This document shows, in pieces, positions 8,730 through 26,602 of a stretch of DNA of 32,000 nt (position 1 is its first letter; the number at the start of each line of letters is the position of its first letter). Made by a program: the position numbers and the translations under genes. The stretch covers positions 1,532,180 through 1,564,179 of the forward strand of contig NZ_LT963434.1 in NCBI RefSeq assembly GCF_900199515.1, in the 5' to 3' direction. Origin of the DNA: Massilicoli timonensis. GTDB taxonomy: Bacteria; Bacillota_I; Bacilli_A; Erysipelotrichales; Erysipelotrichaceae. The notes below the pieces were generated by a model that was not told the origin of the DNA, searched no databases, and saw nothing but the letters and a program-made list of their open reading frames with translations.

Positions 8730-8748
8730 TCTGGACAAAGTGTCCAGA
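8730..8748. repeat. ICE palindrome copy 1 (centre AAG)
   Basis: cacTTCTGGACAaagTGTCCAGAGGtcg; 7 nt after the T4CP stop. Confidence 0.9.
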
Positions 8749-8759
8749 GGTCGCAACCT

Positions 8760-8783
8760 GCCGCCAGAAATGGCGGCTTTTTT
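8760..8783 (+). terminator. intrinsic terminator
   Basis: GCCGCCA-gaaa-TGGCGGC followed by TTTTTT. Confidence 0.65.
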
Positions 8784-8818
8784 CATGGCCGGGGAACACC
8801 CGGAGAAATGGAGGCTAT

Positions 8819-9031
8819 ATGCAGTTCTTTTCTTCCGCTATTGATACTTTGCAGACCCTTGTTGTGGCTCTCGGCGCTGGCCTGGGCGTGTGGGGCGTTG
8901 TCAATCTTCTGGAGGGCTACGGCTCGGACAACCCTGGCTCCAAAAGCCAGGGTATGAAGCAGCTCATGGCGGGCGGCGGCATCATCCTGCTGGGCACCAC
9001 CCTGATCCCTCTGCTGTCTGGCCTGTTTTAA
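8819..9031 (+). CDS. Maff2-family small membrane protein
   Basis: MQFFSSAIDTLQTLVVALGAGLGVWGVVNLLEGYGSDNPGSKSQGMKQLMAGGG matches Maff2-family proteins as I remember them. Confidence 0.75.
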   Translation: MQFFSSAIDTLQTLVVALGAGLGVWGVVNLLEGYGSDNPGSKSQGMKQLMAGGGIILLGTTLIPLLSGLF

Positions 9032-9042
9032 GGTAAGGGCCT

Positions 9043-9909
9043 ATGGATTTTCTCACCGACTGGCTCACGGACTGGCTCAAAGAGCTGTTGATTGGCGGGA
9101 TCATGGGGAACCTGGAGGGGCTCTTTGATTACGTCAATACCCAAGTCGGAGAGATCGCGGTACAGGTGGGGACTACCCCGGCGGCGTGGAACGCCGGGGT
9201 ATTTTCCCTCATCCGCCAGCTTTCCGAAACGGTGATTTTACCGATTGCCGGGCTGGTACTGACCTTTGTTGCCACCTATGAGCTCATTCAGATGCTTTTG
9301 GAAAAAAACAATATGCACGAGTTTGACGTGGCGAATATCTACAAATGGATGTTCAAAACGGCTTGTGCCATCTTCATTCTCTCGAATACCTTTGATATTG
9401 TGATGGCCGTCTTTGACGTGTCGCAGACGGTGATTGCCCAGGCCGGAGGGCTCATCCAGGGCTCCACGGACATCACGCCGGATATGATTACGGAGCTGGA
9501 AACCACCCTGGAGGGGATGGATTTAGGGCCGCTTCTCGGCCTGTGGCTCCAGTCCTCCATTATCGGCGTAACCATGTGGGCGCTGGGCATCGTCATCTTT
9601 GTCCTGGTCTACGGGAGGATGCTGGAAATCTATTTGCTCACCAGTTTGGCCCCGATCCCTATGGCGACAATCTCCCACCGGGAGGTAGGCCAGATCGGGC
9701 AGAACTATCTGCGCTCCCTCTTTGCCGTGGGCTTCCAGGGGATGCTCATTCTGGTGTGCGTTGCAATCTATGCGGTGCTGATCCAGGGGATTGCCACGGG
9801 CGGAGATCCCATCGGGGCGATCTGGGGCACCGTGGGCTATACGGTTTTGCTCTGCTTCATGCTGTTCAAAACCGGGACGATAGCGCGCAGCATCTTTAGC
9901 GCGCACTAA
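9043..9909 (+). CDS. VirB6/TrbL-like polytopic membrane protein (CD0415/CD1112 family)
   Basis: 288 aa with multiple hydrophobic helices. The N-terminus MDFLTDWLTDWLKELLIGGIMGNL is typical of this ICE family. Confidence 0.7.
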   Translation: MDFLTDWLTDWLKELLIGGIMGNLEGLFDYVNTQVGEIAVQVGTTPAAWNAGVFSLIRQLSETVILPIAGLVLTFVATYELIQMLLEKNNMHEFDVANIYKWMFKTACAIFILSNTFDIVMAVFDVSQTVIAQAGGLIQGSTDITPDMITELETTLEGMDLGPLLGLWLQSSIIGVTMWALGIVIFVLVYGRMLEIYLLTSLAPIPMATISHREVGQIGQNYLRSLFAVGFQGMLILVCVAIYAVLIQGIATGGDPIGAIWGTVGYTVLLCFMLFKTGTIARSIFSAH

Positions 9910-9923
9910 GGAGGTTTGATTTT

Positions 9924-10490
9924 ATGGCGAATATGCAGACGGCGGCACAAGGCGCCCCCGTTATGGACGAGGCGGCGATGGCGGAAATGCGCCGCCTGAT
10001 TTTTGAAGCGCCCATCCAGGAGCTGGCGGACGCCCAGGGCATTTCCATTGACGAGGCCGTACAGCTCCGGGTGGAGAAAAACCTGGAGGCCGCCGAGGTG
10101 CCTATCGAGGTGTCGGTGCGGCCCATTGAGCCCCAGGGCAAGCTGATTGGCTTTGCCAGCGTGAATATCGGCGGCATCGTGATTGACGATTTTAAGGTAG
10201 TCAACGGGAAAAACGGGATCTTCCTGGGTGAGCCCAGCAAACCCGATCCCACAACCCGGACGGGCTACCGTTCCACAGCGCGGGTGACAAACCGGGCCTT
10301 GCAGGAGCGGCTGAGCGCGGCGGCGGCAGACGGCTACAACATGGCCGTGGAAAAGCTGATTGCCCGCGCCGAGGCCCTGCGTCCAAAGCCGATCCGGGAG
10401 CAGATGGCAAACGCGGCAAAGGAGGCCGCAAAGGAAAACGCCACCCGGCCCGCCCAGGCAAAGGGCAAGGAGGCCAGGGATGACCGATAA
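9924..10490 (+). CDS. SpoVG-like protein
   Basis: Core KLIGFASVNIGGIVIDDFKVVNGKNGIFLGEPSKPD resembles the SpoVG fold signature. SD TAAGGAGG upstream. Confidence 0.65.
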   Translation: MANMQTAAQGAPVMDEAAMAEMRRLIFEAPIQELADAQGISIDEAVQLRVEKNLEAAEVPIEVSVRPIEPQGKLIGFASVNIGGIVIDDFKVVNGKNGIFLGEPSKPDPTTRTGYRSTARVTNRALQERLSAAAADGYNMAVEKLIARAEALRPKPIREQMANAAKEAAKENATRPAQAKGKEARDDR

Positions 10491-11274
10491 GGGCACCTCT
10501 GGACAAAGTGTCCAGAAGTCCCCAAAGCTCTTGGAGGGGCTGTTCCTCATGGATGGCATCGAGGGCCTGCGCTCCCTGCCCCGTCATTCCGTGGATATGC
10601 TCTTGACCGATCCTCCGTATGGCACCACCCGGAACTTTTGGGATGTGCCCCTGCCGCTCCCGGAGCTGTGGGAGGCGGTGAAATGGGCGGTCAAGCCGGA
10701 CGGCGCGATCCTGTTCTTTGCTCAGTGCCCCTATGACAAGGTGCTGGGTGCATCCAACCTGTCCATGCTCCGCTATGAGTGGGTATGGTACAAAAGCCGA
10801 TGCACAGGTTTTCTCAACGCGAGGCGGGCCCCGTTAAAAAAGACGGAGAACATCCTGGTGTTCTACCAGAAGCTCCCCCTTTACAATCCGCAGTTTGAAC
10901 AGGGCAAGCCTTACAAACGGAGTTTGACAAACAACGGGGACAGCCCCAACTATGGAAAATTCGTCCGTACCACGGGCGGCTCGGAGGACGGCTTGCGGTT
11001 TCCGGGGAATGTGCTCACGTTCCCCACCGTCCAGCGCACCGTCCACCCCACGCAGAAGCCGGTGGCCCTGTGCGAGTATTTTATCAAGACCTATACCCGG
11101 CCCGGCGAGCTGGTGGCGGACATCTGCGCGGGCTCCGGCACAACGGCGGTGGCCGCTCTCAACACGGGCCGCCGTTTCCTCTGTTTTGAAACCGTCCCGG
11201 CCTACTATGCTGCCGCCAGCGAGCGCATCCGTGTGGCAGGCGCGGCGGTGGAGGCCGGGGAGAAAGGAGTGTAA
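10480..11274 (+). CDS. beta-class N6-adenine/N4-cytosine DNA methyltransferase (orphan)
   Basis: DPPYG (motif IV) precedes TVHPTQKP and DICAGSGTTAVAA (motif I). ATG 10480 lies 7 nt after AAGGAGG. Confidence 0.85.
   Translation: MTDKGTSGQSVQKSPKLLEGLFLMDGIEGLRSLPRHSVDMLLTDPPYGTTRNFWDVPLPLPELWEAVKWAVKPDGAILFFAQCPYDKVLGASNLSMLRYEWVWYKSRCTGFLNARRAPLKKTENILVFYQKLPLYNPQFEQGKPYKRSLTNNGDSPNYGKFVRTTGGSEDGLRFPGNVLTFPTVQRTVHPTQKPVALCEYFIKTYTRPGELVADICAGSGTTAVAALNTGRRFLCFETVPAYYAAASERIRVAGAAVEAGEKGV
10498..10516. repeat. ICE palindrome copy 2 (centre AAG)
   Basis: cacCTCTGGACAaagTGTCCAGAAGtcc; inside codons 7-13 of the methyltransferase ORF. Confidence 0.9.
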
Positions 11275-11276
11275 CT

Positions 11277-11852
11277 ATCAGGAAATATTCTGTGATCTAC
11301 GCCGATCCCCCCTGGCGGTATGCTCAAAAGGGCTTGCAGGGGGCGGCGGAAAAACACTACCCCACAATGGGGATTGACGAGTTATGCACGCTCCCGGTGG
11401 CGGATCTGGCGGCCCCGGACAGCGTGCTTTTTTTGTGGGCCACGTTCCCGCAACTCCCGGAGGCCCTGCGGCTCATCAAGGCGTGGGGCTTCACCTACAA
11501 GAGCGTTGCTTTCGTCTGGTTGAAGAAAAACCGCAAGTCCGAGGGCTGGTTCTATGGCCTGGGCTTCTGGACGCGGGGCAACGCGGAGGTCTGCCTGCTG
11601 GCAACACGGGGACACCCGAAACGGCAGGCGGCAAACGTCCATCAATTCATTATTTCCCCTATCCAGGAGCACAGCCGCAAGCCGGAGGAGGCCCGTGAAA
11701 AGATCGTGGCTCTCATGGGCGATGTGTCCAGGGTGGAGCTGTTCGCCCGGCAGTCCCCGCCCGGCTGGGACGTGTGGGGGAACGAGGTGGAAAGCACCAT
11801 CCCGGACTTCTGGACAAAGTGTCCAGAGGTGGCCGGGGACAGAAAGGAGTGA
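11277..11852 (+). CDS. MT-A70-family DNA methyltransferase (orphan). Start is ATC 11277 (SD-positioned) or GTG 11292.
   Basis: VIYADPPWRY (DPPW motif) and KAWGFTYKSVAFVWLK. No nuclease gene adjacent. Confidence 0.8.
   Translation: MRKYSVIYADPPWRYAQKGLQGAAEKHYPTMGIDELCTLPVADLAAPDSVLFLWATFPQLPEALRLIKAWGFTYKSVAFVWLKKNRKSEGWFYGLGFWTRGNAEVCLLATRGHPKRQAANVHQFIISPIQEHSRKPEEAREKIVALMGDVSRVELFARQSPPGWDVWGNEVESTIPDFWTKCPEVAGDRKE
11809..11827. repeat. ICE palindrome copy 3 (centre AAG)
   Basis: ggacTTCTGGACAaagTGTCCAGAGGtggccgggg; encodes the FWTKCPEV tail of the MT-A70 ORF. Confidence 0.9.
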
Positions 11853-12253
11853 TTGAAATTCCCTATGTAAATGTCCCCAACGACTTATCCAAAATCAAGA
11901 CCAAACTTGCCTTTAACCTGACGAAACGCCAGCTTGTGTGCTTCGGGATCGCGGCGGCGGTGGGCATCCCGTCCTACCTGCTGGCCCGGAGCACCATCGG
12001 CAACACCGGGGCCATGTTCCTGATGATGGGGGTGGCGCTCCCGGCGTTTCTGCTGGCGATGTATGAAAAAGACGGCCTCCCCTTTGAAAAGGTGGTGCGG
12101 AATGTCCTGCGGGCGAAGTTCCTGCGGCCTGGGGTGAGGCCCTACCAGACGGAAAATATCTATGCCCCGTTCACCCAGCGGGGCGCTGTGCGAAAGGAGG
12201 ATGCGATTGCAGAAAGCAAAAAGCCAAAAGCGCGGCCCCGGAAAGGCCGCTAA
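11849..12253 (+). CDS. PrgI-like small T4SS membrane protein. Start is GTG 11849 or ATT 11858.
   Basis: IPYVNVPNDLSKIKTKLAFNLTKRQLVCFG followed by two TM helices, as in PrgI-family proteins. Confidence 0.65.
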   Translation: MIEIPYVNVPNDLSKIKTKLAFNLTKRQLVCFGIAAAVGIPSYLLARSTIGNTGAMFLMMGVALPAFLLAMYEKDGLPFEKVVRNVLRAKFLRPGVRPYQTENIYAPFTQRGAVRKEDAIAESKKPKARPRKGR

Positions 12254-14570
12254 CCGGAAAGCTGTTTTGTCCGCCCAGCAGACCATCCCTTATCTGGTGA
12301 TGCACCCGGACGGCGTGTGCCAGCTCCCCGGCGGGCTCTACACAAAGACGGTGGAATATGAGGACATCAACTATTCCGTTGCGTCTACGGAGGATCAGAC
12401 GGCGATTTTCAGCGGGTGGAGCTCGTTCCTCAACTACTTCGACAGCTCCCTGCCGTTCCAGCTATCCTTTATCAACCGCCGCTCCCGTTCCCGGAGCCGC
12501 TACAAGGTAAACATTCCCCCGGCCCAGGATGACTTTGACAGCATCCGGGCCGAGTTTACGGGGATGCTGAAAAACCAGATCGCCAAAAGCAACAACGGCA
12601 TCGAGCGGTCAAAATATATCACCTTTGGCCTGCCCGCCGAGGGGATCGCGGAAGCCCGCCCCCGCCTGGAACGGGTGGAGGCCGATGTGACAGGCAACCT
12701 CAAACGGCTGGGCGTTCCCTCTGTCCCGATGGACGGACAGGCGCGGCTGGCCCTGCTCCACGGGCAGATGCATCCCGGCAACCGGGAGCCGTTCCGCTTC
12801 TCCTGGCAGGACATCCCCAAAACCGGGCTTGGCACAAAGGACTATATCGCGCCGGACAGCTTCGACTTCCGGCAGGCCAGGACGTTCCGCATCGGCCAAT
12901 ACTGGGGTGCGGCGTCCTACTTGCAAATTTTGGCGTCCGAGCTCTCGGACAAGCTCCTGGCGGAGATCCTGGAGCTGGATGCGGAAATGACGGTTACTCT
13001 CCACATTCAGACGGTGGATCAGCTTAAAGCCATTAAGACCATCAAGGGCAAAATCTCCGACATCGGCAAAATGAAGGTGGAGGAACAGCGCAAGGCGGTG
13101 CGGGCCGGGTACGATCCCGACATCCTGCCCCCTGACCTGATTACATTCAGCAAGGACGCGGCGGAGCTCCTGGCCGATCTGCAGTCCCGCAACGAGCGGA
13201 TGTTCCTCTTGACGTTTACGGTTATCAATATCGCGCCCACCCGCCAGCGGCTGGAAAACGATGTGTTCACGGTGGGCGGCATCGCGCAGAAATACAACTG
13301 CGCTTTGAAGCGGCTGGACTGGCAACAGGAGCAGGGCTTTGTGTCCTCTCTGGCCCTGGGCTATAACGAGGTGGAAATCCAGCGGGGCATGACTACCAGC
13401 TCCACGGCGATTTTCATTCCCTTTATGACCAGGGAGCTGCGGATGGCCGGGCCGTCCCTCTACTACGGCATGAACGCCCTTTCCCACAACGTCATCATGG
13501 CGGATCGCAAGAAGCTGAAATCGGCCAACGGCTTGTATCTCGGCTCCACGGGCTCCGGCAAGAGTTTTGCCGCAAAGCGCGAGATCATCAACGTGTTTCT
13601 CGCTATCCCCAAAGACCGCATTATCATTGTCGATCCGATGGGGGAATATGCCCCGCTGGTGCGGAGGCTGGGCGGCCAGGTGGTGGAGATCGCGCCCGGC
13701 TCCCCCAGCCATATCAACCCGATGGACATCCAGCTTGATCTGGACGATGACGAAAGCCCGCTTTCCATGAAAGCGGATTTTTTGTTGTCCCTGTGCGAGC
13801 TGGTGGTGGGCGGCAAAGACGGCCTGCAACCCATTGAAAAGACGGTGATTGACCGCTGTGTGCGGCTGGTCTACCGGGAGCAGGCCCTGGGAATTGCCAC
13901 GGGAAAAACGCCGCTGTTGCAGGACTTGTACGAGGAGCTTCTCAAACAGCCGGAGCCGGAGGCACGCCGGGTGGCAACCGCCCTGGAGCTCTACTGTACG
14001 GGCTCCCTTAACCTGTTCAACCATCAGACTAACGTAAAACTGACGGCGCATATTGTCTGCATCGTCCTCAAAGGGCTGGGAGAAAACCTCCGCAAAATCG
14101 CTATGCACGTTACCAACGACTTTGTAACTTCGGCGGTCAATGTGAATTTCCACAACGGCGTTTCTACCTGGTGCTACTTTGACGAGTTCCACATCCTGCT
14201 CCGGGACGCGCTCACCGCCAGCTACTTTGTAGCCGTGTGGAAGATGCTCCGCAAAAAGGGCTGTGTGCCCTCAGCTTTAACGCAGAACGTCAAAGACCTT
14301 TTGGCCAGCCGGGAGATCGAGGCCATTCTGGACAACACGGACTTTATGATCCTGCTGTCCCAGGCCCAAAGTGACCGGGCGATTTTGGCGAAACAGCTCG
14401 GCATTTCCGAGCATCAGCTCTCCTACATCACCCACTCCAATTCCGGCGAGGGCCTGCTGTTCTATGGGGATGTGACCATCCCCTTTGTGGATCGGTTCCC
14501 CCGTGGGGAGATCTATAACCTGCTGACCACGCGCCCGGAGGACTTGAAGAATGAAGCGAAAACCGAATAA
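12207..14570 (+). CDS. VirB4-like conjugal transfer ATPase (CD1110 type)
   Basis: SAQQTIPY N-terminal motif. Walker A GSTGSGKSFAAK and Walker B WCYFDEFHILL. Start alternatives are ATG 12201, TTG 12207 and TTG 12267. Confidence 0.9.
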   Translation: MQKAKSQKRGPGKAANRKAVLSAQQTIPYLVMHPDGVCQLPGGLYTKTVEYEDINYSVASTEDQTAIFSGWSSFLNYFDSSLPFQLSFINRRSRSRSRYKVNIPPAQDDFDSIRAEFTGMLKNQIAKSNNGIERSKYITFGLPAEGIAEARPRLERVEADVTGNLKRLGVPSVPMDGQARLALLHGQMHPGNREPFRFSWQDIPKTGLGTKDYIAPDSFDFRQARTFRIGQYWGAASYLQILASELSDKLLAEILELDAEMTVTLHIQTVDQLKAIKTIKGKISDIGKMKVEEQRKAVRAGYDPDILPPDLITFSKDAAELLADLQSRNERMFLLTFTVINIAPTRQRLENDVFTVGGIAQKYNCALKRLDWQQEQGFVSSLALGYNEVEIQRGMTTSSTAIFIPFMTRELRMAGPSLYYGMNALSHNVIMADRKKLKSANGLYLGSTGSGKSFAAKREIINVFLAIPKDRIIIVDPMGEYAPLVRRLGGQVVEIAPGSPSHINPMDIQLDLDDDESPLSMKADFLLSLCELVVGGKDGLQPIEKTVIDRCVRLVYREQALGIATGKTPLLQDLYEELLKQPEPEARRVATALELYCTGSLNLFNHQTNVKLTAHIVCIVLKGLGENLRKIAMHVTNDFVTSAVNVNFHNGVSTWCYFDEFHILLRDALTASYFVAVWKMLRKKGCVPSALTQNVKDLLASREIEAILDNTDFMILLSQAQSDRAILAKQLGISEHQLSYITHSNSGEGLLFYGDVTIPFVDRFPRGEIYNLLTTRPEDLKNEAKTE

Positions 14571-16302
14571 ACCCGAACAAGAGCCCAGGGAGCGCCCCGG
14601 CTCCTGGGAGGAGCCCGCCGATCCCGGCGGCGCTTCTTCCGGGAACGCTGGGGGTGGCTCCCCAGGCGGTGCCGGGACAGAGGGCACTTCTGGACAAAGT
14701 GTCCACAAGTCAAAGTTCCGGCAGAAAAGCAAACAGGAGCAGGCCGCCGCTTCTAAGCTCCGCATGGAAAAGCGCGGGGAAAAGCTGGAGGCGGCCAAAG
14801 ACAAGCTGGCAAAACAGAAGCCCCCGAAAAAGCCCGGCCCCATCCGGCGGGTAGGCCGCGCCGCTGGCGGGGCCGCCCACGGCTTTGTGCATGGGAAGAT
14901 TTATGAAAACGAGCAGGAAAATGTGGGCATCGAGGGGGCCCACCGCTCCGAGCTGGTGGGCGAGGCCGCCCTGCGGCATGGCTCCCGGTTTGTGAAGCGG
15001 AAAGTCCGGGAACACCCGGCAAAGGCCGTCCAGCGGGCTGAGTCAAAATATGTCAAGGCCACGGCGGACTATCACTTCCGCATGGCCGCCCAGGAACACC
15101 CGGAGATGTCCGGCAACCCGGTTTCCCGGATGTGGCGCAGGCACCGCTTGAAAAAGCAGTATCAGAAGCGGGCGCGGGAGGCGGTCAAGACCGGGGCGGC
15201 AGGCGCGGCGAAAAAGACAGCCGCCGCCACGGAAAAGGCCGGGGCAAAAGCGGTAGGCTTTGTGAAGCGGCATCCCGTGGGGGTGGTGCTGGCCCTGGCC
15301 TGTGTGCTCTTGCTCTTTATGATGCAGTCCTGTTCATCGTCACTGGTAATGCTGGGGAACTCCGGCGCGGGGGCGGTGGGCGCGACTACCTACCCATCCC
15401 AGGATGAGGAAATGCTGGCGGCGGAGGCGGCCTACTGCGGTATGGAGGCAGAGCTCCAGGACTACCTGGACAGCTACGAAAGCACCCACGACTATGACGA
15501 GTACCACTTCGACTTGGACAGCATTGAGCACGATCCCTATGTGCTGATCTCTATCCTGTCTGTGCTCCATGAGGGGGCATGGATGCTGGATCAGGTGCAG
15601 GGGACGATGGAAACCCTCTTTGACCGCCAGTACATTCTCACCGAGGATGTGGTGGTGGAGGTGCGCTATCGGACGGAAAGCCGGACGGACAGCGAGGGCA
15701 ACTCCTACACGGTAGAGGTGCCCTACAATTACTATATTTGTTATGTAACGCTGGAAAACCGCAACCTGTCCCATCTGCCCCTGGAAATGATGAACGAGGA
15801 GCAGATGTCCCGGTATTCCCTCTATATGTCTACCCTGGGGAACCGGCCTGACCTGTTCCCGGAGTCGGCCTATGTGGGGAAATATGTTACCAACCCGCCC
15901 GCCGAATATGACGTGCCGGGGGAATATCTGGACGATGAAACCTTTGCGGCCATGCTCACCGAGGCGGAGAAATACCTGGGCTATCCCTATGTGTGGGGCG
16001 GGAGCTCTCCGGCCACGTCCTTTGACTGCTCCGGCTTCGTGTCCTGGGTGATCAATCACAGCGGCTGGAATGTGGGCCGCCTGGGAGCCCAGGGGCTCTA
16101 TAACATCTGCACCCCTACCAGCAATCCAAAGCCCGGCGATCTGGTGTTCTTTGTCGGCACCTATGACACGGCGGGCGTGTCCCACTGTGGCATCTATGTG
16201 GGGGACGGGATGATGATCCACTGTGGAGATCCCATCCAATATGCAAACTTAAATACAAGTTACTGGCAATCCCATTTCTACGCCTACGGGCGTTTACCCT
16301 GA
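14551..16302 (+). CDS. T4SS-associated cell-wall hydrolase with C-terminal NlpC/P60 domain (CD1108 type)
   Basis: C-terminus GYPYVWGGSSPATSFDCSGFVSWV...SHCGIYVGDGMMIHCG (Cys-His NlpC/P60 signature). Central TM segment. Confidence 0.85.
   Translation: MKRKPNKPEQEPRERPGSWEEPADPGGASSGNAGGGSPGGAGTEGTSGQSVHKSKFRQKSKQEQAAASKLRMEKRGEKLEAAKDKLAKQKPPKKPGPIRRVGRAAGGAAHGFVHGKIYENEQENVGIEGAHRSELVGEAALRHGSRFVKRKVREHPAKAVQRAESKYVKATADYHFRMAAQEHPEMSGNPVSRMWRRHRLKKQYQKRAREAVKTGAAGAAKKTAAATEKAGAKAVGFVKRHPVGVVLALACVLLLFMMQSCSSSLVMLGNSGAGAVGATTYPSQDEEMLAAEAAYCGMEAELQDYLDSYESTHDYDEYHFDLDSIEHDPYVLISILSVLHEGAWMLDQVQGTMETLFDRQYILTEDVVVEVRYRTESRTDSEGNSYTVEVPYNYYICYVTLENRNLSHLPLEMMNEEQMSRYSLYMSTLGNRPDLFPESAYVGKYVTNPPAEYDVPGEYLDDETFAAMLTEAEKYLGYPYVWGGSSPATSFDCSGFVSWVINHSGWNVGRLGAQGLYNICTPTSNPKPGDLVFFVGTYDTAGVSHCGIYVGDGMMIHCGDPIQYANLNTSYWQSHFYAYGRLP
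14689..14707. repeat. ICE palindrome copy 4 (centre AAG, 1 mismatch)
   Basis: cacTTCTGGACAaagTGTCCAcAAGtca; inside the N-terminal region of the hydrolase ORF. Confidence 0.85.
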
Positions 16303-16315: not shown

Positions 16316-16567
16316 ATGGCGGTAAGCAAAAGCCAGAAAATCCAGGCCGAGATTGATAAGGTCAAGGCCAAAATCAGCGAACAGCAGGCCCGGCTCAAGG
16401 AGCTGGAAAAGAACAAGCAGGAGGCCGAAAACAGCGAGATCGTGGACATCGTGCGGGGCATGAGCATTTCCCTGGAGGAGCTCCCCCTGGTGCTCCAGCG
16501 GCTCCGGGACGGCACTTCTGGACAAAGTGTCCAGAAGTCCGGGGACGGCGGAAAGGAGGAAAATTGA
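16316..16567 (+). CDS. DUF4315-like coiled-coil protein
   Basis: KIQAEIDKVKAKISEQQARLKELEKNKQEAENSEIVDIVRGM. SD TAAGGAGG upstream. The C-terminal tail is encoded by palindrome copy 5. Confidence 0.55.
   Translation: MAVSKSQKIQAEIDKVKAKISEQQARLKELEKNKQEAENSEIVDIVRGMSISLEELPLVLQRLRDGTSGQSVQKSGDGGKEEN
16517..16535. repeat. ICE palindrome copy 5 (centre AAG, 11-bp perfect arms 16514-16538)
   Basis: gcACTTCTGGACAaagTGTCCAGAAGTccgggg. Confidence 0.9.
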
Positions 16568-17886: not shown

Positions 17887-18017
17887 TGTGTGGAAAATTA
17901 GGCTCTGGAAAACCCGCTTGTATCAAGGCTTTCCGGGGCCCTTTTGGGGGTGGGCCGTATCTTTCTATGGCCTGCCCTTATTTTGCTCAAATGCTTTCCA
18001 CATCTACCCCCGCCGCT

Positions 18018-18036
18018 TCTGGACACTTTGTCCAGA
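18018..18036. repeat. ICE palindrome copy 6 (centre CTT)
   Basis: ccgcTTCTGGACActtTGTCCAGAGGtggcgggg; intergenic, 15 nt before SD TAAGGAGG. Confidence 0.9.
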
Positions 18037-18062
18037 GGTGGCGGGGCATCTAAGGAGGTGTT

Positions 18063-19368: not shown

Positions 19369-19410
19369 CCTGCCGGGGAGCGGTTTTGCCGTTCCCCGGC
19401 TATCTCGACT

Positions 19411-19429
19411 TCTGGACATTTTGTCCAGA
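19411..19429. repeat. ICE palindrome copy 7 (centre TTT)
   Basis: cgacTTCTGGACAtttTGTCCAGAGGtgggg; 43 nt after the mobC stop. Confidence 0.9.
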
Positions 19430-19451
19430 GGTGGGGATAGCCGAGGCATCC

Positions 19452-19817: not shown

Positions 19818-19821
19818 TACT

Positions 19822-19840
19822 TACGGACAAAGTGTCCAGA
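19822..19840. repeat. ICE palindrome copy 8 (centre AAG, left arm degenerate)
   Basis: atacTTacGGACAaagTGTCCAGAGGtgccggg; 5 nt after the stop of 19527-19817. Confidence 0.8.
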
Positions 19841-19845
19841 GGTGC

Positions 19846-21311: not shown

Positions 21312-21337
21312 CTCCGGGCCGCAGACAACCAGGGACT

Positions 21338-21356
21338 TCTGGACAAAGTGTCCAGA
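21338..21356. repeat. ICE palindrome copy 9 (centre AAG, 13-bp perfect arms 21333-21361)
   Basis: GGACTTCTGGACAaagTGTCCAGAAGTCC; 22 nt after the relaxase-2 stop. Confidence 0.9.
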
Positions 21357-21389
21357 AGTCCGGCGGGTTTGGGGAGCTCCCCAACAAGC

Positions 21390-21418
21390 ATTTTCACGGG
21401 CCTGCGGCCTGTGAAAAT
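21390..21418. terminator. hairpin between convergent genes (possible bidirectional terminator)
   Basis: ATTTTCAC-g-GGCC-tgc-GGCC-t-GTGAAAAT followed by TT. Preceded by the 12-bp palindrome GGGGAGCTCCCC (21371-21382). Confidence 0.4.
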
Positions 21419-21502
21419 TTCGGAGTGTGACCACACCCGAATTGCTTGCCGTTTTGTGCACCCCCCGAAAATGGCGCGAAAAAACGGAGGTACACGCTTT
21501 TC

Positions 21503-21862
21503 TTACGCATCCTCCGTTTCCTTAGCCGCTTTCATCGCTTGGATTGTGGCTTCTACAATTTTTAGTTCTTTTTCGTCCAGGGCGTTGAGCATGGCATCAA
21601 TCCGCTTTCTGCACTCGCTCCCTTTATTCTTGGACGGATAGAAATATTGATCTACCGATATATCGAACATTGTCACCATTTGATAAAAGGTGTTGAGGCT
21701 GGGGTGCTGGCCGTCATTCTCGTTATACATGATGGTACGCGGAGCCCGGTCAACAATATAGGCCAGTTGCTCCTGCGTCATCCCGCTGTCCTCCCGCGCC
21801 CGCTTGATAGCGAGTCCTATATCGTGAAAATCAAATCGTCGTTCATCTCTCTCAATCTTCAT
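21503..21862 (-). CDS. XRE-family HTH transcriptional regulator
   Basis: IGLAIKRAREDSGMTQEQLAYIVDRAPRTIMYNENDGQHPSLNTF is a Cro/C1-type HTH. This is the only minus-strand gene in the right half of the ICE. Confidence 0.8.
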   Translation of the reverse strand: MKIERDERRFDFHDIGLAIKRAREDSGMTQEQLAYIVDRAPRTIMYNENDGQHPSLNTFYQMVTMFDISVDQYFYPSKNKGSECRKRIDAMLNALDEKELKIVEATIQAMKAAKETEDA

Positions 21863-21980
21863 AATATCACCTAATGTAATTTTACATTTCAGGTATTATT
21901 ATTTGAACGATTGTATATTTCATATTTCTGACTGTTTAATTTCACTATAAATTACATGAATGACGTTCGGAAGGCGATCA

Positions 21981-22029
21981 TTGACAAAATGACATGAGTG
22001 TCATAAAATATAAATGACACAAGTGTCAT
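21981..22029 (+). promoter_or_regulatory. sigma-A promoter with two tandem palindromic operators (TetR-type autoregulation)
   Basis: -35 TTGACA (21981-21986), 17-nt spacer, -10 TAAAAT (22004-22009). Operators ATGACAtgagTGTCAT (21988-22003) and ATGACACaaGTGTCAT (22014-22029). Confidence 0.55.
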
Positions 22030-22045
22030 TTGTGGAGGTGTACCT

Positions 22046-22636
22046 ATGTCGGAAAGATCAAAAGAAAAAAGAAATCTAATATTAAAATGTGCAGAACAAG
22101 TTTTTAGAACTAAGGGTTTTTCAAATGTAACTATGAAAGACATAATTGACGAATGCAATATTAGCCGTGGAGGTATCTATCTATACTTTAGTTCCGTAGA
22201 TGAGATATTTACAGAAGTTATCAAGCAATATCATAAATCACACGCAGAAAAAGTGACTTATGACTTGAATAGCACTAAAGATTTTTTTAAAGCCATTGAT
22301 CAATACTTTGAAGATTTAAAATATAACCTTTTGAATATTGATGATAGCCTAAAATTAGCAATGATTGAATTTTTTGCCGCTCATAAAGATGATCAGGACA
22401 AAGAGTTTTTTGAAATTGCAGTTAACGGCTTAAAGCAACCCATTATGGAAATTGTATTTTTTGGAAAAGAACATGGTATTTTACCTTATGAACTGACTAA
22501 TGAATTAGTAGAGTTAGTAGTATTTTGGTTTATAGGACTTGAAGAGATAATGCTTTCCGCTCATCTGTCAAATGCAATTTTGGAAAAACAAATTCAAATA
22601 ATGAAAAATTTGATCCTGACGGGTAAAATTTTATAG
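22046..22636 (+). CDS. TetR/AcrR-family transcriptional regulator
   Basis: N-terminal HTH KRNLILKCAEQVFRTKGFSNVTMKDIIDECNISRGGIYLYFSSVDEIF. SD GGAGG upstream. Confidence 0.8.
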   Translation: MSERSKEKRNLILKCAEQVFRTKGFSNVTMKDIIDECNISRGGIYLYFSSVDEIFTEVIKQYHKSHAEKVTYDLNSTKDFFKAIDQYFEDLKYNLLNIDDSLKLAMIEFFAAHKDDQDKEFFEIAVNGLKQPIMEIVFFGKEHGILPYELTNELVELVVFWFIGLEEIMLSAHLSNAILEKQIQIMKNLILTGKIL

Positions 22637-22717
22637 CGGAAGGAAGAGTAGTACGAAAAAAGCAGATTTGCATTAAAATTTATGCTGGTAATCAAAGGCG
22701 GCAGAATGGAGAATAGA

Positions 22718-23305
22718 ATGAAAGAAATAGAAAACAGAAGAAGTATACGAAAATTTCGTTCCCAAAAAATAGAAAGGGAAATCATAGATAATATTCTTAA
22801 AGCTGGTATTGATGCGCCATCAGCAAAGAATAGACAACCTTGGAAATTTGTCGTTTTAGAAGGTAATGCAAAAAAGCAATTCTCCGAAATAATGAAACAA
22901 GGAATACAGGAAGAAAGGAGTAGGCAATTACTTCCTAATAGTTCAAAATATCTTGCGGCGGCAAATCATACGGCCCAAATAATAGATCAAGCACCTGTGT
23001 TACTGCTAATTTATAATCCGCAAGGTAAATCTTTATATGAGGATTTGAGTATTGAAAATAAGATATATGAACGCGCTGACATTCAGTCTGTCGGGGCCGC
23101 CATACAAAACATATTATTAGAAGCCACTTCTCTTGGTATAGGCTCTTTGTGGATATGTGATATATATTTTGCTTATGATAAATTGTCCAAATACCATAAA
23201 GAATATGGTGAATTGTTGGCCGCAGTAGCGTTGGGGTATCCTGATGAGCATCCTGCAAAGAGACCGAGGAATGCATTTAAAGATGTAGTATTCTATCTTA
23301 AATAA
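22718..23305 (+). CDS. nitroreductase-family oxidoreductase (start ATG 22718; alternatives 22706 and 22682)
   Basis: MKEIENRRSIRKFRSQKIEREIIDNILKAGIDAPSAKNRQPWKFVVL is the canonical nitroreductase N-terminus. Confidence 0.85.
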   Translation: MKEIENRRSIRKFRSQKIEREIIDNILKAGIDAPSAKNRQPWKFVVLEGNAKKQFSEIMKQGIQEERSRQLLPNSSKYLAAANHTAQIIDQAPVLLLIYNPQGKSLYEDLSIENKIYERADIQSVGAAIQNILLEATSLGIGSLWICDIYFAYDKLSKYHKEYGELLAAVALGYPDEHPAKRPRNAFKDVVFYLK

Positions 23306-23401
23306 TACATAGAAATTTAAGAACTCAGTGCTACCGAAACAAAAAAAACCGTTGTTTCGGCGGCTGGTTCATCACGCGCCAAAACAAAATACAGTAGCCC
23401 T

Positions 23402-23445
23402 ACGGCGGTTTTGAAATAGCAAATTTCAAGCCGCCGTTTTCTTTT
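23402..23445 (+). terminator. intrinsic terminator after the cargo operon
   Basis: ACGGCGGTTTTGAAAT / AAATTTCAAGCCGCCGT stem (one bulge) followed by TTTTCTTTT. Confidence 0.5.
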
Positions 23446-23491
23446 CAAAAAATGAGAATACGGGGGGTGTGTTAAAGTCGCCCTTTTTTAA

Positions 23492-23537
23492 GGATACGGC
23501 GGTGTCCGGGAGGTATCGCCGTGTCCTTTTTCTTTTT
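23492..23537 (+). terminator. second intrinsic terminator
   Basis: GGATACGGCG (23492-23501) / CGCCGTGTCC (23517-23526) followed by TTTTTCTTTTT. Confidence 0.55.
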
Positions 23538-23685
23538 CCCTCCCCCTAACCTGTCAAAAAAAGCCCACCCGCCCAACAGGATCAGTCCGGCGGTGGATGC
23601 GAAATTTGGCAGTACATAAATGAATTTGTCGTTTCATGCGCTTGCGTGGCTTTGTGTCGCGCAGGCGCATTTTGTTTGTCCGACT

Positions 23686-23704
23686 TCTGGACACTTTGTC
23701 CAGA
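23686..23704. repeat. ICE palindrome copy 10 (centre CTT)
   Basis: cgacTTCTGGACActtTGTCCAGAGGtgcggggcgg; 87 nt upstream of sigma-like paralog D. Confidence 0.9.
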
Positions 23705-23745
23705 GGTGCGGGGCGGCTCCCCTGGGTGCCGCTCTCCACCATCCC

Positions 23746-23781
23746 CCGTTTCGGTCACTCGTTCACCCAACACCGAAACGG
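23746..23781 (+). promoter_or_regulatory. 10-bp inverted repeat whose 3' arm runs into the SD of sigma-like paralog D
   Basis: CCGTTTCGGT (23746-23755) / ACCGAAACGG (23772-23781). GGAGG at 23780-23784 and ATG at 23791. Confidence 0.35.
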
Positions 23782-23790
23782 AGGTTTATA

Positions 23791-24201
23791 ATGACTACCA
23801 TCAATCTGAAAGATTTTTATTATTGGTACACGCAGGATCAGTTTATCGAAGTCACCGAGGAAGTGGCCGAGGCACTCCGGGCCAGCGTCCGCTATGAAGC
23901 GGCCTACCAGCGGCGGCTCACCCGGCACAAAGCGCAGTATTCCCTGGACTGTGAGGACGGGATCGAATACTCCGCCTGCCTGCATGAGCCCACTCCCCAG
24001 GAGCTTCTGGAGCGCATGGAGCTGTTTATCCGGCTCTGGAACGCCCTCAACTCCCTGCCGGAGATCCAGGGCCGCCGGATCGATGCTCATATCATTCTTG
24101 GCATAAGCATCAAAGCGATTGCCGAGGCCGATGGTGTACATGAGGAGTCCGTCCGCCAGTCTATCAAGCGGGGCCTGGAACGCATGAAAAAAACTTTTTG
24201 A
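23791..24201 (+). CDS. sigma-region-4-like HTH protein, paralog D
   Basis: Starts MTTINLKDFYYW. Contains FIEVTEEVAEAL, YSLDCEDGIE and the HTH LPEIQGRRIDAHIILGISIKAIAEADGVHEESVRQSIKRGLERMKK. Confidence 0.65.
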   Translation: MTTINLKDFYYWYTQDQFIEVTEEVAEALRASVRYEAAYQRRLTRHKAQYSLDCEDGIEYSACLHEPTPQELLERMELFIRLWNALNSLPEIQGRRIDAHIILGISIKAIAEADGVHEESVRQSIKRGLERMKKTF

Positions 24202-24552
24202 TTTTTGCTGTTTCCCCACTTGGAATTGATGCAAAAATGTCTTGGTTATTAGAGAGGGAAATATAAACCTCTCCGCAACGGAACGGCGGCGGCCCTGAGC
24301 ATAGCGCGGGGAGCCGGGCGGCGGGTGCGCGGTGACTTCTCTCCACGGAGAATGAGCGATAAACACCAGCGCCGCAGGTGGGCCGGGCCAACCCACGGCC
24401 ACGATCCGCCATTGGACAGGCTGGCCGCCTGTCCCTCCGGGCCGCCGTTCCCCGTTGTGTGGGGATGCCGCGCCGAGTATGGTTGTCTTTGGACAGGTCA
24501 AGGAAACGGGCGCGGCACTCCCTAATTTATCAAAAAAGAGGGGGAACGCTCT

Positions 24553-24753
24553 ATGAACTATGATCCAGAACTGGCGGCCTTGCTCTCCCAGCCGTGGAGC
24601 AACGATGCCTGCCGGGGGTACGTCATCGCCGCGATGGAGCGGTGCGGCTTTAAGCCGTCCGACATTGAACAGGTGATGGTCGAGCTTTACGAGGTATTCG
24701 ACTATACCACTTTGCAGGAGGCCGAGGCATACTACGAGCGGAGCCCCTACTAA
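24553..24753 (+). CDS. small hypothetical protein (66 aa). Its position makes it a possible recombination directionality factor or regulator.
   Basis: ATG after SD AGAGGGGG. No motif I recognise. Confidence 0.45.
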   Translation: MNYDPELAALLSQPWSNDACRGYVIAAMERCGFKPSDIEQVMVELYEVFDYTTLQEAEAYYERSPY

Positions 24754-24755
24754 CT

Positions 24756-24774
24756 TCCGGACACTTTGTCCAGA
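24756..24774. repeat. ICE palindrome copy 11 (centre CTT, 1 mismatch)
   Basis: taacTTCcGGACActtTGTCCAGAGGtac; 2 nt after the stop of 24553-24753. Confidence 0.85.
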
Positions 24775-24862
24775 GGTACATATCCGGCCAAAGGCCAGCA
24801 CTTTCCCGGTGCTGGCCTTTGCCATGTTTCAAGACATTCTTTGATTGCATGGGAGGGATTTT

Positions 24863-25036
24863 ATGCAGGCACAGGTCAAATATGAAAGTGAAATCAAAAC
24901 TGCTGTACTCGGAGATCGCACGATCACCGTCAAAAATCTCACCCCCGTTTTTTCCCCGCAGGAACAGGACAAGCGCAACCGCGAGATTGAGCGGCGGCTG
25001 TTTGACGTGTTCCGCAAATATGCCGGGCGGGGGTAG
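24863..25036 (+). CDS. small hypothetical protein (57 aa) upstream of the recombinase
   Basis: ATG 24863 after SD GGGAGGG. Sequence MQAQVKYESEIKTAVLGDRTITVKNLTPVFSPQEQDKRNREIERRLFDVFRKY. Confidence 0.45.
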   Translation: MQAQVKYESEIKTAVLGDRTITVKNLTPVFSPQEQDKRNREIERRLFDVFRKYAGRG

Positions 25037-25120
25037 GCCAGAGTCATCCTTGTAGTAAGGGGGCGGCAGAGGTACAATATAATTGTAGGTTGGCTCCCGT
25101 TTAACGGAAGGGAGCTAATT

Positions 25121-26602
25121 ATGGATAGTAGAATAGATGCAATTTATGGGCGGCAGTCGATTGACAAAAAAGACAGTATCAGCATTGAAAGTCAGTTTGA
25201 ATTTTGCCGCTATGAGCTTAAAGGCGGTGAGGGTAAGGAATACAAAGACAAGGGCTACTCTGGCAAGAACATTGAGCGCCCCGACTTCCAGCGGCTTCTG
25301 CAGGACATCCGGCTGGGCCTGATTAAGCGGGTGATCGTCTACAAGCTGGATCGGATTAGCCGTTCCATCGTGGACTTTGCAAAGCTCATGGAACTGTTCA
25401 AGCAGTACGATGTGGAGTTTGTGTCCTGCACAGAAAAGTTTGACACTTCCACGCCGATGGGCCGCGCGATGCTCAATATCTGCATTGTCTTTGCCCAGCT
25501 TGAACGCGAAAGCATCCAGATGCGTGTGCAGGACGCTTTCTATTCCCGGTGTACCAAAGGCTACTATATGCGAGGCCGGACGCCATACGGTTTTGATACC
25601 GAGCCCATCGTCATGGACGGGATCAAGACAAAGAAGCTGGTGGAAAATGCGGAAATGGATTTTGCCGAGCTGATGTATCAAATGTATGCGGAGCCGGGCA
25701 ACTCCTACGGCGACATATCCCGGTACTTTGCCGAGAACGACATTAAGGTTTATGACAAGTCCCTAAAGCGCGGGTTTATTGCTCAACTGCTGAGAAACCC
25801 CGTCTACGTCCAGGCCGATATGGACATCTACGAATACTTCAAGGCCCAGGGCGTAAAAATTGAAAGTTCCCCGGAAATGTTCACAGGGGACAATAGCTGT
25901 TATCTCTATCAAGGGCGCGAGGGCGAGGAGCCGATCCTTGTGATTGCTCCCCACCAGGGGCGCATCCCCTCCCAGCTCTGGCTGACCGTTCAGCGCAAGC
26001 TCTCACAAAACACCACATTCCAGAATGGCCGGAAATGCCATAACACATGGCTGGCCGGGAAAATCAAGTGTGGACGTTGCGGCTATGCCCTGGCAAGTCT
26101 GAACGCCAGAAATGGTGTCACCTACCTGCGGTGCAAACAACGGGCAGACAATAAGAGCTGCAAGGGAGCCGGTACGCTGACCGCGCAAAGCATGGAGGCG
26201 TTTGTTTACGGCGAGATGGTTAAGAAGATGCGGAAATTCCACACGCTGAAAGGCGGAAAGGAACAAAGCTATAATCCGAAGCTGACCGCCGCCCGTGTCG
26301 CCCTTGCAAAGACGGAAAGTGAGATCGAGAAACTTCTGGACACTTTGTCCGGCGCTAATCCGCTTCTCCTGCAATACGCAAACACCCGCATTGAGGAACT
26401 GGATGCGGAACGGCAGAAACAGCTCCGGCTGGTCGCAGACCTCACCGCTAATTCTGTTTCCGCTTCACAGATTGATAGCATTACGGGCTATCTTGATGAT
26501 TGGGAGTCCGTGAGCTTTGACGATAAGCGTAAGGTGGTTGATATACTCATATCACAGATTGACGCTACCAGTGAGAGTGTTACAATCCACTGGAAAATCT
26601 AA
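25121..26602 (+). CDS. large serine recombinase (ICE integrase)
   Basis: N-terminal resolvase domain AIYGRQSIDKKDSISIESQ...VIVYKLDRISRS. Central recombinase domain plus a zinc ribbon (CGRCGYAL...CKQRADNKSC) and a coiled coil. Confidence 0.9.
   Translation: MDSRIDAIYGRQSIDKKDSISIESQFEFCRYELKGGEGKEYKDKGYSGKNIERPDFQRLLQDIRLGLIKRVIVYKLDRISRSIVDFAKLMELFKQYDVEFVSCTEKFDTSTPMGRAMLNICIVFAQLERESIQMRVQDAFYSRCTKGYYMRGRTPYGFDTEPIVMDGIKTKKLVENAEMDFAELMYQMYAEPGNSYGDISRYFAENDIKVYDKSLKRGFIAQLLRNPVYVQADMDIYEYFKAQGVKIESSPEMFTGDNSCYLYQGREGEEPILVIAPHQGRIPSQLWLTVQRKLSQNTTFQNGRKCHNTWLAGKIKCGRCGYALASLNARNGVTYLRCKQRADNKSCKGAGTLTAQSMEAFVYGEMVKKMRKFHTLKGGKEQSYNPKLTAARVALAKTESEIEKLLDTLSGANPLLLQYANTRIEELDAERQKQLRLVADLTANSVSASQIDSITGYLDDWESVSFDDKRKVVDILISQIDATSESVTIHWKI
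26335..26353. repeat. ICE palindrome copy 12 (centre CTT, right arm degenerate), inside the recombinase gene
   Basis: aaacTTCTGGACActtTGTCCgGcGcta; read as LLDTLSG. Confidence 0.6.

Follow-up and report, generated by a model that had tools for sequence, protein, structure and literature searches.

The DNA analyzed here, a 32-kb window of the Massilicoli timonensis genome, carries a segment of an integrative and conjugative element (ICE) along which 12 copies of one 25-bp palindrome are dispersed. The first part of this ICE encodes the C-terminal half of the coupling protein T4CP, Maff2, VirB6, a SpoVG-like protein, two DNA methylases, PrgI, VirB4, an NlpC/P60 protein, DUF4315, and a CD1107-like protein. 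These are followed by a Cys-rich VLP protein, DarA_C, NikA/MobC, DUF5699, the relaxase, a TetR and nitroreductase cargo, a small sigma-region-4-like gene, and a large serine recombinase. The ICE part has a GC content of approximately 59%, compared to 43 to 46% in the adjoining chromosomal flank. Only the C-terminal 287 residues of T4CP are present, and the left part of the window is occupied by a separate, Tn4451-like integrative mobilizable element (IME). As set out below, the palindromes are probably recognized by a ParB/Spo0J-family protein whose gene would lie at the left end of the ICE.

A pattern search of the whole window for TCTGGACANNNTGTCCAGA, allowing up to 2 mismatches, gave exactly 12 matches, and the copy number, coordinates, mismatch classes, and centers were the same as in the first-pass annotation of this DNA. 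With the same threshold applied to the palindrome core, TCTGGACA-NNN-TGTCCAGA, eight copies are perfect, two have 1 mismatch, and two have 2 mismatches (Table 1); in 100 dinucleotide-preserving shuffles, the mean number of matches was 0.00 and the maximum 0. The center is AAG in seven copies, CTT in four, and TTT in one. Flanks included, the repeat forms a palindrome of 25 bp around a 3-bp center, found as ACT-TCTGGACA-NNN-TGTCCAGA-RGT in nearly all window copies (25-bp consensus RCYTCTGGACA-N3-TGTCCAGARGY; half-site RCYTCTGGACA), and the arms extend to 13 bp at 21333-21361, as reported before. All copies fall between 8727 and 26356, entirely within the ICE part of the window (8.7 to 26.4 kb), with 411 to 2880 bp from one copy to the next. 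At up to 2 mismatches there were none in positions 1-8700 or in 26.4-32 kb, confirming their reported absence from the former and from the chromosomal flank; the ICE thus holds 12 copies and the remaining 13 kb of DNA none. The lack of copies in this left part is explained by the IME, which takes up 1-7.8 kb and does not belong to the ICE.

Seven of the 12 copies are strictly intergenic, 1 to 128 nt past a stop codon, and one (24753) overlaps a stop codon. Three lie within coding ends (the MT-A70, DUF4315, and NlpC/P60 genes), and the degenerate copy at 26335 is within the serine recombinase gene. Most copies are therefore at gene ends, and the description of the array as ICE-specific and situated at gene and module boundaries holds; the earlier statement that nearly every copy sits by a stop codon or a Shine-Dalgarno sequence is slightly too strong, given the three copies in coding ends and the one in the recombinase gene. 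None of the 12 copies is directly followed by a T tract, so that they are not ordinary intrinsic (Rho-independent) terminators, and separate canonical terminators were found downstream of copies 1 and 8, both in line with the first-pass annotation. Its rejection of a CRISPR array was also upheld, as genes lie between the copies and the spacing is irregular, without the short, regular spacers of such arrays. A promoter element was considered and rejected, since the distance from palindrome through Shine-Dalgarno sequence to start codon is only approximately 27 to 47 nt at several sites and a sigma-70 scan gave no hits beside the sites.

Table 1. Palindromic sites and the two mobile elements in the 32-kb window, with observations on the same positions in related elements (loci given as L numbers)
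Feature	Position	Strand	Core start (mismatches)	Sequence or class	Setting	Further observations
Site 1	8727..8751		8730 (0)	ACTTCTGGACA-AAG-TGTCCAGAGGT	3 nt past stop of T4CP C-terminal fragment, 67 nt before Maff2	Intrinsic terminator downstream (8760-8785)
Site 2	10495..10519		10498 (0)	ACCTCTGGACA-AAG-TGTCCAGAAGT	4 nt past SpoVG-like stop, 29 nt before N6/N4 methyltransferase start	
Site 3	11806..11830		11809 (0)		In last 16 codons of MT-A70 methylase open reading frame (DFWTKCPE encoded); 27 nt before PrgI	L090: additional C5-methyltransferase cassette between two copies
Site 4	14686..14710		14689 (1)	1 mismatch	115 nt past VirB4 stop; NlpC/P60 codons 46-53 (TSGQSVHK encoded)	Junction also occupied in L011 and L019, ICEs with VirB4 only 44% identical
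Site 5	16514..16538		16517 (0)	Perfect 25-mer	Last 18 codons of DUF4315 (TSGQSVQK encoded); 34 nt before CD1107-like gene	
Site 6	18015..18039		18018 (0)	Center CTT	128 nt past Cys-rich VLP gene, 47 nt before DarA_C	Homology breakpoint; L012 and L097 lack DarA
Site 7	19408..19432		19411 (0)	Center TTT	39 nt past NikA/MobC	Homology breakpoint; ~1 kb of cargo adjoins in L012 and L095
Site 8	19819..19843		19822 (2)	2 left-arm mismatches	1 nt past DUF5699 stop; then terminator	L014: 1.6-kb cassette between two copies
Site 9	21335..21359		21338 (0)	Perfect, 13-bp arms	23 nt past relaxase stop; start of cargo region	Surroundings are a conserved non-coding stretch rich in hairpins
Site 10	23683..23707		23686 (0)	Center CTT	End of cargo region; 84 nt upstream of true start (23792) of sigma-70-region-4-like gene	Position found again in many relatives
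Site 11	24753..24777		24756 (1)	1 mismatch	Overlaps stop codon of 66-aa open reading frame	L120 homology stops here
Site 12	26332..26356		26335 (2)	Degenerate; 2 core mismatches, flank unmatched	In large serine recombinase gene	Weakest member
ICE segment	7860..26650 (end approximate)	+		CTn4/Tn1549-like type, MPF_FA (Pfam scans)		
IME, right part	1..7800	+		Separate Tn4451-like mobilizable element	Inserted in ICE T4CP gene	No sites

An exact-pattern scan of one genome per species matched at least 120 stretches. About a dozen of the listed matches are singletons from unrelated phyla without ACT/AGT flanks and are chance background. The remaining listed matches come from gut Clostridia, mainly Lachnospiraceae and Oscillospiraceae, often with 2 to 6 copies per 8 kb, and 58 loci among the listed matches encode homologues of the window's ICE proteins. 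Some of these loci belong to elements with VirB4 proteins only 44 to 58% identical that retain a copy at the same junctions, namely downstream of VirB4, at the boundary of T4CP and Maff2, and to either side of the sigma-like gene; the alignment of related ICEs that had been suggested earlier thus revealed orthologous copy positions across highly diverged elements. The arms are constant in elements ranging from 27% to 63% GC. The center and the outermost flank vary by lineage (AAG/CTT with ACT..RGT, CGG/CCG with GCC..GGC, and a YGA/TTG group), and both are uniform within an element, with 108 of 146 within-locus pairs alike in center compared to approximately 24 expected. The orientation relative to the genes is random (AAG 28 and CTT 24; CGG 22 and CCG 21). 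Since the sequence itself is kept, and not pairing alone, a sequence-specific reader is indicated.

Open reading frames were clustered across 95 loci, taken from the listed matches, that have the motif with family-type flanks. The commonest neighbor gene, present in 26 loci, is parB-like; next in frequency are genes for serine recombinases, RepA_N, PcfB, ParA, and T4CP, and these loci represent the left arm of the ICE family, which the window lacks. The ParB-like protein is a genuine member of the ParB/Spo0J family, scoring 92.7 bits against TIGR00180 (cut-off 58.45) and matching Pfam ParB_N and HTH_ParB; relatives of the same type (L017, L085, L205-L207, and L218) scored 73.9 to 92.7 bits against that cut-off, with ParB_N found either with or without HTH_ParB. 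In alignments, the GHRR sequence (box II GxxR) and N..QR..LPSE are invariant. The general layout of the family is DUF6075, ParA, ParB, RepA_N, a site, an open reading frame, a site, PcfB, T4CP, a site, and then Maff2 onward, and ParA-ParB-RepA_N is present in the Lachnospiraceae branch. In the high-GC ICE type of the window, the intact left end reads ParB, DUF7768, ArdA, PcfB, T4CP, and sites are found 13 nt past the ParB stop, 8 nt past the ArdA stop, and 7 nt past the T4CP stop. One contig (L017 and L075) encodes ParB, the N-terminal half of T4CP, and the IME recombinase and, elsewhere, the C-terminal half of T4CP, a site, and Maff2. As the IME splits the T4CP gene, parB would fall outside the window, and we infer its presence on this ICE copy from close relatives that are split by the IME in the same way (L017/L075) or intact (L085 and L205). 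The ICE-type ParBs also have a Pro/Ala/Lys-rich N-terminal extension of approximately 200 residues with RGRP (AT-hook-like) motifs. A match with 3 mismatches at position 7750 of L205 was considered as a relic site within the ICE parB and rejected as a chance match, encoding ELLDKVDTK downstream of the helix-turn-helix (HTH).

In five small, very different elements, the palindrome lies within the parB-like gene itself, in frame, in a variable linker just before the HTH, and its codons are identical in all five despite GC contents of 27 to 53%. Two annotated plasmids, from Enterococcus faecalis and Cohnella, also have a single palindrome within parB, and in the Cohnella plasmid parB is adjoined by an AAA ATPase gene that is ParA-like by position. 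We then examined 80 metagenomic parB-like loci picked by ParB protein similarity alone and not by the motif. Only 3 of the 80 had the TGGA-type motif, but every one of them carried, at a shared codon position immediately ahead of the HTH, a palindrome built to the same architecture. This architecture is ACTTC-NNNN-CA-ANT-TG-NNNN-GAAGT, with constant outer arms and CA/TG. In the 77 loci where the parB match is nearly full-length, 22 forms of the 4-nt inner block occur, every time with the mirror-complementary change in the opposite arm. Across the 40 unique 25-mers, 418 of 440 arm pairs are Watson-Crick pairs, the 22 exceptions being 1 G.T, 6 A.C, and 15 other mismatches. Covariation restricted to Watson-Crick pairs argues for a symmetric site in duplex DNA rather than an RNA stem.

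One alternative is that the palindromes act as RNA hairpins in polycistronic transfer transcripts, i.e., as 3'-end stabilizers or as processing or pause signals between cistrons. The predicted hairpin is indeed very stable (-21.8 kcal/mol, z = -6.4), and most copies are at gene ends within co-directional operons. We nevertheless consider this role improbable, as the arm sequence itself is conserved across ICEs with VirB4 only 44% identical, G.T pairs are not favored over other exceptions in the parB-internal set, the two orientations are equally frequent, and copies also bound cargo transcribed from the opposite strand. In addition, no Rfam family fits the palindromes (the sole matches were three sub-threshold ones elsewhere), and the link to the ParB HTH would be left unexplained. 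The RNA hairpin would still form and may, incidentally, stabilize the messages upstream of it. Hairpins formed by the transferred single strand, serving as priming sites, single-strand promoters, or secondary relaxase sites, are extremely unlikely as an explanation. They would suit a conjugative element whose perfect 11 to 13-bp arms would fold in single-stranded DNA, with one copy in a conserved hairpin-rich region directly after the relaxase gene; however, no conserved nick-like sequence lies beside the copies, copies also occur within the parB genes of plasmids and small elements, Tn1549 has none despite a related relaxase, and neither the sequence conservation nor the HTH co-variation described below would be accounted for. 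The first-pass annotation had put forward both kinds of hairpin, and the conserved arms, the Watson-Crick-only covariation, and the equal orientations speak against either one as the primary function.

The approximately 25 residues after the palindrome are the most variable part of the ParB-like protein, with an entropy peak at alignment columns 160 to 200, and in an alignment with Spo0J they correspond to its helix 2, turn, and recognition helix. Among ParB pairs at least 90% identical elsewhere, this 25-aa HTH segment was 43% identical when the palindromes differed (n = 271) and 99% identical when the palindrome was the same (n = 68), the palindrome's own codons being left out of the comparison. 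The pairing of inner block and recognition helix is near one-to-one over the 22 block types. It has been demonstrated experimentally that ParB versus Noc specificity is set by residues including 173 and 179 (PMC7383237), and the variable positions include the equivalents of both, with residues counted by hand from the Spo0J alignment.

Site 10 lies upstream of the window's small sigma-70-region-4-like gene, and in at least 11 related loci copies lie to either side of this gene, as would be expected if the palindromes were operators of another ICE regulator, namely this sigma-like protein or an XRE protein. However, the three paralogous sigma-like genes of the IME (1-7.8 kb) are not accompanied by any site, small elements retain the palindrome within parB, and the site variation tracks the ParB HTH and no other gene, making such a regulator very unlikely. 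Of the functions proposed in the first-pass annotation, an operator-like array for an HTH protein of the ICE came closest to the evidence, with ParB indicated as the most probable binder instead of the sigma-like, XRE, or SpoVG-like proteins.

A sister ICE in a Subdoligranulum record (L212), with VirB4 87% identical to that of the window and the same gene order, carries nine palindromes at junctions orthologous to window sites. The block is purely GGGA in six of them (ACTTYGGGACA..TGTCCCGAAGT), and the other three are hybrids, GAGA in the left arm and of GGGA type in the right; a separate palindrome scan added a tenth copy, pure GGGA, downstream of the VLP gene. All 9 to 10 are confined to the first 31 kb of this record, the other 64 kb having none. 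The left arm of the L212 ICE, on a separate record, encodes a ParB 66% identical to the window-type ParB, followed by a site of the same hybrid type. All copies on one ICE are of one specificity type. Since the T4CP homologue search returned only proteins at least 96% identical, distant relatives were drawn from a plasmid collection. In the regions examined, neither a ParB homologue nor a palindrome of the family was found in Tn1549 proper (VirB4 51% identical; left end DUF6017, DUF5348, PcfB), in the L123 element, or in three plasmids with related type IV secretion system genes. These absences, together with the switch in L212, suggest that the presence of the array goes with the presence of ParB. 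The comparison with Tn1549/CTn-like ICEs and of densities on and off the element, which the first-pass annotation had recommended, accordingly found the copies confined to the element (0 in 64 kb off-element in the Subdoligranulum record) and the array tracking ParB.

Comparisons at the sequence level thus show a genetic link between the palindrome family and parB-like genes, a constraint on the palindromes as symmetric sites in DNA, their co-variation with the reading head of ParB, and their confinement to the element. We put at about 70% the probability that the palindromes serve, in the manner of parS or of KorB operators, as cognate sites for the ParB/Spo0J-family protein encoded by the first gene at the ICE left end. 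Our confidence in any single downstream function of the array is much lower.

Several observations weigh against this interpretation or parts of it. The window itself contains no ParB gene. The recognition helix does not fully predict the site: the SGRQVQ helix motif is paired with both TGGA and CCGA, and the helix NYKKVMRY is common to TGGA-type and GGGA-type ICE ParBs. In this ParB family (e.g., L074, L017, and L077), Ser or Asp precedes the Asn of box III where canonical ParB (ENLQRE) has its catalytic Glu, and the CTPase/clamp cycle may therefore differ from the canonical one. No ParA partner, as a classical ParABS partition system would have, was seen in the high-GC ICE type of the window, and no sigma-70-type promoters were found beside the sites in the transfer region in the sigma-70 scan, so that a KorB-like operator placement is no more than a possibility; ICE transcription may rely on ICE-encoded sigma-like factors. 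Finally, the outer flank is biased on the sense strand, with ACT..GGT (U.G on this strand) in 40 cases and ACC..AGT in 15, which could reflect a constraint at the RNA level and counts in favor of the RNA hairpins discussed above. Shared descent of directly repeated copies also explains this bias, and its reading as a G.U signal of an RNA hairpin was rejected, because the parB-internal set has no G.U excess. In CGG-type ICEs, the outer half-site position concerned is C in both arms, giving the RCYTCTGGACA consensus.

ParB proteins are CTP-gated clamps that load at parS and then slide (PMC11790492). By analogy, each of the roughly 15 sites on the ICE would be a loading point for ParB dimers, and clamps spreading from sites 0.4 to 2.9 kb apart could coat the whole element. 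The sites would lie at gene ends because compact operons tolerate 25 bp there, and where no gap exists, they would be translated as short linker peptides (TSGQSVQK or FWTKCP). Among the most likely consequences are the positioning or partition of the excised, replicating circle and a KorB-like damping of transfer-gene transcription; partition is favored in the Lachnospiraceae branch, because ParA and RepA_N flank ParB there. A third possible outcome is early establishment in recipients, and the location of ParB beside ArdA would fit a leading region with such an establishment role. As the sole sequences common to diverged ICEs, the 25-mers might also act as crossover points for the exchange of cargo.

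In comparisons of the window with related ICEs, 11 of 47 internal homology breakpoints fell within 30 nt of a site center, compared to 4% expected. Additional cassettes in L014 and L090 are bounded exactly by two copies, and diverse cargo (a C5 methylase, a TIR-like gene, and a hydrolase) lies between copies. Recombination as the primary role, with the 25-mers as site-specific or short-homology crossover sites in the manner of integron attC, is nonetheless quite unlikely. No integron-type integrase is associated with the copies and the ICE part showed no tyrosine integrase; the copies are nearly perfect and identical in sequence, and the cassettes occur in either orientation. Furthermore, the two copies flanking the L090 cassette have opposite centers, AAG and CTT, which does not suit polar site-specific recombination, 77% of the breakpoints lie away from sites (e.g., at Maff2), small elements have their single copy within parB, and the co-variation with the ParB HTH would remain unexplained. 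Given the opposite centers and the many breakpoints elsewhere, we read the enrichment at boundaries as a by-product rather than a dedicated recombination system, the 25-mers being islands of identity between diverged ICEs and hence crossover points. The suggestion in the first-pass annotation that the copies promote recombination at module boundaries is thus borne out as far as the breakpoints near sites and the bracketed cargo are concerned, and not by the majority of breakpoints or by any evident dedicated recombinase.

As guessed from translations, the cargo at palindrome junctions of relatives includes, at L095 4019-5176, an opposite-strand pair of 34% GC encoding a TIR-like protein and a membrane protein, possibly a defense module; at L090 3247-4319, a C5 DNA methyltransferase; at L014 1336-2963, an XRE-membrane protein and an alpha/beta hydrolase; and at L012 3427-4445, a DUF1273/SLOG-like protein.

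The placement of short palindromes at gene ends, their uniformity within an element, and the flipping of their centers are also what a selfish mini-element multiplied within the ICE without function would produce, resembling repetitive extragenic palindromic (REP) sequences, bacterial interspersed mosaic elements (BIMEs), or miniature inverted-repeat transposable elements. We find this scarcely credible. Copies occur in ICE-sized clusters and not host-wide, with none in the flanks or in the 64 kb of non-ICE DNA of L212/L216/L217, so that host chromosomes are not populated; positions are orthologous across very diverged ICEs; and the core is conserved far beyond neutral expectation. No REP-associated tyrosine transposase (RAYT) was seen in the loci, although no dedicated search for one was made.

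Known systems with which the array can be compared are ParB-parS, the operators of KorB dispersed on RK2, Noc-NBS, and the centromeres scattered over N15. A close parallel is KorB and its operator OB in IncP-1 plasmids RK2/RP4, where a ParB-family HTH protein of a conjugative element likewise has a palindrome dispersed over the whole element; RK2 carries 12 OB sites. From OB sites located 4 bp to >1 kb from promoters, KorB silences genes for replication and transfer, acting as a sliding clamp that depends on CTP (PMC11790492). In contrast to these sites near promoters, the ICE sites lie at gene ends within operons, and for the ICE, repression is only a proposal. RK2 is also a Gram-negative plasmid with an OB of 13 to 16 bp and unrelated sequence, whereas the site in this Firmicutes ICE is 25 bp, and KorB has the partners KorA and IncC (ParA), whereas the ICE type of the window shows no ParA and no identified KorA-like partner.

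The Spo0J-parS system of Bacillus subtilis and relatives involves the same protein family (ParB_N and HTH_ParB, with the GxxR box) and dispersed palindromic sites, of which one parS lies within the parB/spo0J coding sequence. An in-gene site is thus a single parS in spo0J and a feature of 80/80 small-element parB genes here. However, parS is 16 bp without an odd center, is spaced by tens of kilobases, and is nearly universal, whereas the ICE sites are 25 bp with a 3-bp center and spaced by 0.4 to 2.9 kb, and the inner block is hypervariable between elements. Noc-NBS is similar in that an orphan ParB paralogue without its own ParA has many dispersed palindromes, and the specificity of Noc was altered through a few recognition-helix residues (PMC7383237). 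Noc differs in being a chromosomal cell-division factor with a membrane-targeting helix, in place of the long N-terminus with RGRP motifs of the ICE ParB. The linear phage-plasmid N15 has four dispersed sopC sites and SopB/SopA of the F family, with a reported influence on gene expression; its partition palindromes are scattered and not clustered at the par operon, as here, and unlike the ICE, N15 is not conjugative. The stoperators of mycobacteriophage L5 and Cluster A phages are present in tens of copies in short intergenic gaps, are uniform per genome, and co-evolve with the repressor. They differ from the ICE palindromes in being asymmetric, orientation-dependent, and bound by a non-ParB phage repressor. 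HerB (YfjB) is a ParB-like CTP-binding HTH protein encoded in the leading region of F-like plasmids near anti-restriction genes (PMC13370423). The ICE ParB similarly adjoins ArdA; HerB, however, binds the host chromosome and reprograms host transcription, whereas here the sites are on the element. REP/BIME sequences and attC sites share with the ICE palindromes the position after stops or at cassette boundaries, but the ICE copies are not genome-wide, and where attC is imperfect and variable, they are near-perfect and sequence-specific.

In the literature, searches with sequence strings gave only unrelated primer coincidences, those on the Tn1549 origin of transfer (oriT) and on ParB in connection with CTn elements turned up no mention of the repeats, and we found no description of such an array on Gram-positive ICEs or of an in-gene, hypervariable cassette of site plus helix. 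In a broader picture, for and against which we regard the odds as evenly balanced, the CTn4/Tn1549-like ICEs of gut Clostridia would have a Gram-positive counterpart of the KorB network, with an orphan ParB clamp acting at approximately 15 palindromes. The wider parB family would be a natural library of at least 22 orthogonal ParB-site pairs. In it, the site would lie within parB, approximately 20 codons upstream of the recognition helix, coding for a stretch of protein beside its own reading head, and would be inherited and swapped together with its reader as a single, hypervariable cassette of specificity.

These ICEs rank with the most frequent mobile elements in Clostridia of the human gut and carry resistance and defense cargo; more than 8000 close T4CP homologues were found, one of them in Clostridioides difficile. 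If the palindromes are ParB loading sites, they would offer a handle on how such ICEs are silenced, positioned, or stabilized after excision, would explain where cargo is exchanged, and would provide a simple sequence signature to find and delimit ICEs. The co-varying site and helix would be a ready data set for the DNA-recognition code of ParB and could supply orthogonal ParB/parS pairs for DNA labeling.

Of the IME, the window holds the right part, with three sigma-like genes, the MobA/MobL relaxase gene, a replisome organiser, a DnaC-like gene, and TnpW; the element also has a large serine recombinase, TnpV, and an ABC-transporter cargo, and it is present elsewhere in other genomic contexts. 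Its insertion point in T4CP, whose coordinates in the window are 7860-8723, is at approximately residue 321-338. T4CP is split likewise in several independent genomes (L017 and L075 on one contig, L117, L212, and L218), and the T4CP gene therefore seems to be a preferred target. The ICE here is probably not self-transmissible unless the IME excises. A second insertion hotspot, unrelated to the palindromes, is the 3' part of Maff2 (window 8942-8970), where seven related loci lose homology; in L205-L207 (11950-12731), Maff2 is interrupted at this point by an insertion with a ribosomal-protection tetracycline-resistance-like gene. In the fetched parts of the element bearing ACATCGGGCCAACATGGCCCGAACC, no parB was seen; this sequence, at window 76-100, is a palindrome of the same architecture (CGGGCCA-ACA-TGGCCCG) with another block and other flanks, located approximately 70 nt upstream of the IME's first sigma-like gene and conserved in L121-L123.

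Directly after site 9, window 21360-21410 contains a perfect 16-bp palindrome, TTGGGGAGCTCCCCAA, followed by CAAGCATTTTCACGGGCCTGCG; this stretch is kept in distant relatives on either side of site 9 and, lying beside the relaxase gene, is a candidate oriT or nic region. Upstream of site 10, the non-coding window 23342-23570 is 82 to 88% identical in loci whose neighbor genes are only 65 to 72% identical. It contains two terminator-like hairpins and a weak, sub-threshold Rfam match (SQ2397, 'cis-regulator of HTH transcription factor', E = 0.25), and may be a regulatory RNA or leader. In L043, L059, L063, and L102, TGGA and GGGA palindromes occur in tandem, 23 to 29 nt from start to start, and such pairs (e.g., L059 4140 and 4163) lie just upstream of the Cys-rich VLP gene. 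Finally, many small relaxase-ParB elements (L143, L145, L153, L160, L164, L167, L182, L184, and L196) have a second conserved palindrome, CAGAATCGTGA-TTT-TCACGATTCTG, approximately 1.75 kb upstream of the parB-internal site, which may be an oriT inverted repeat.

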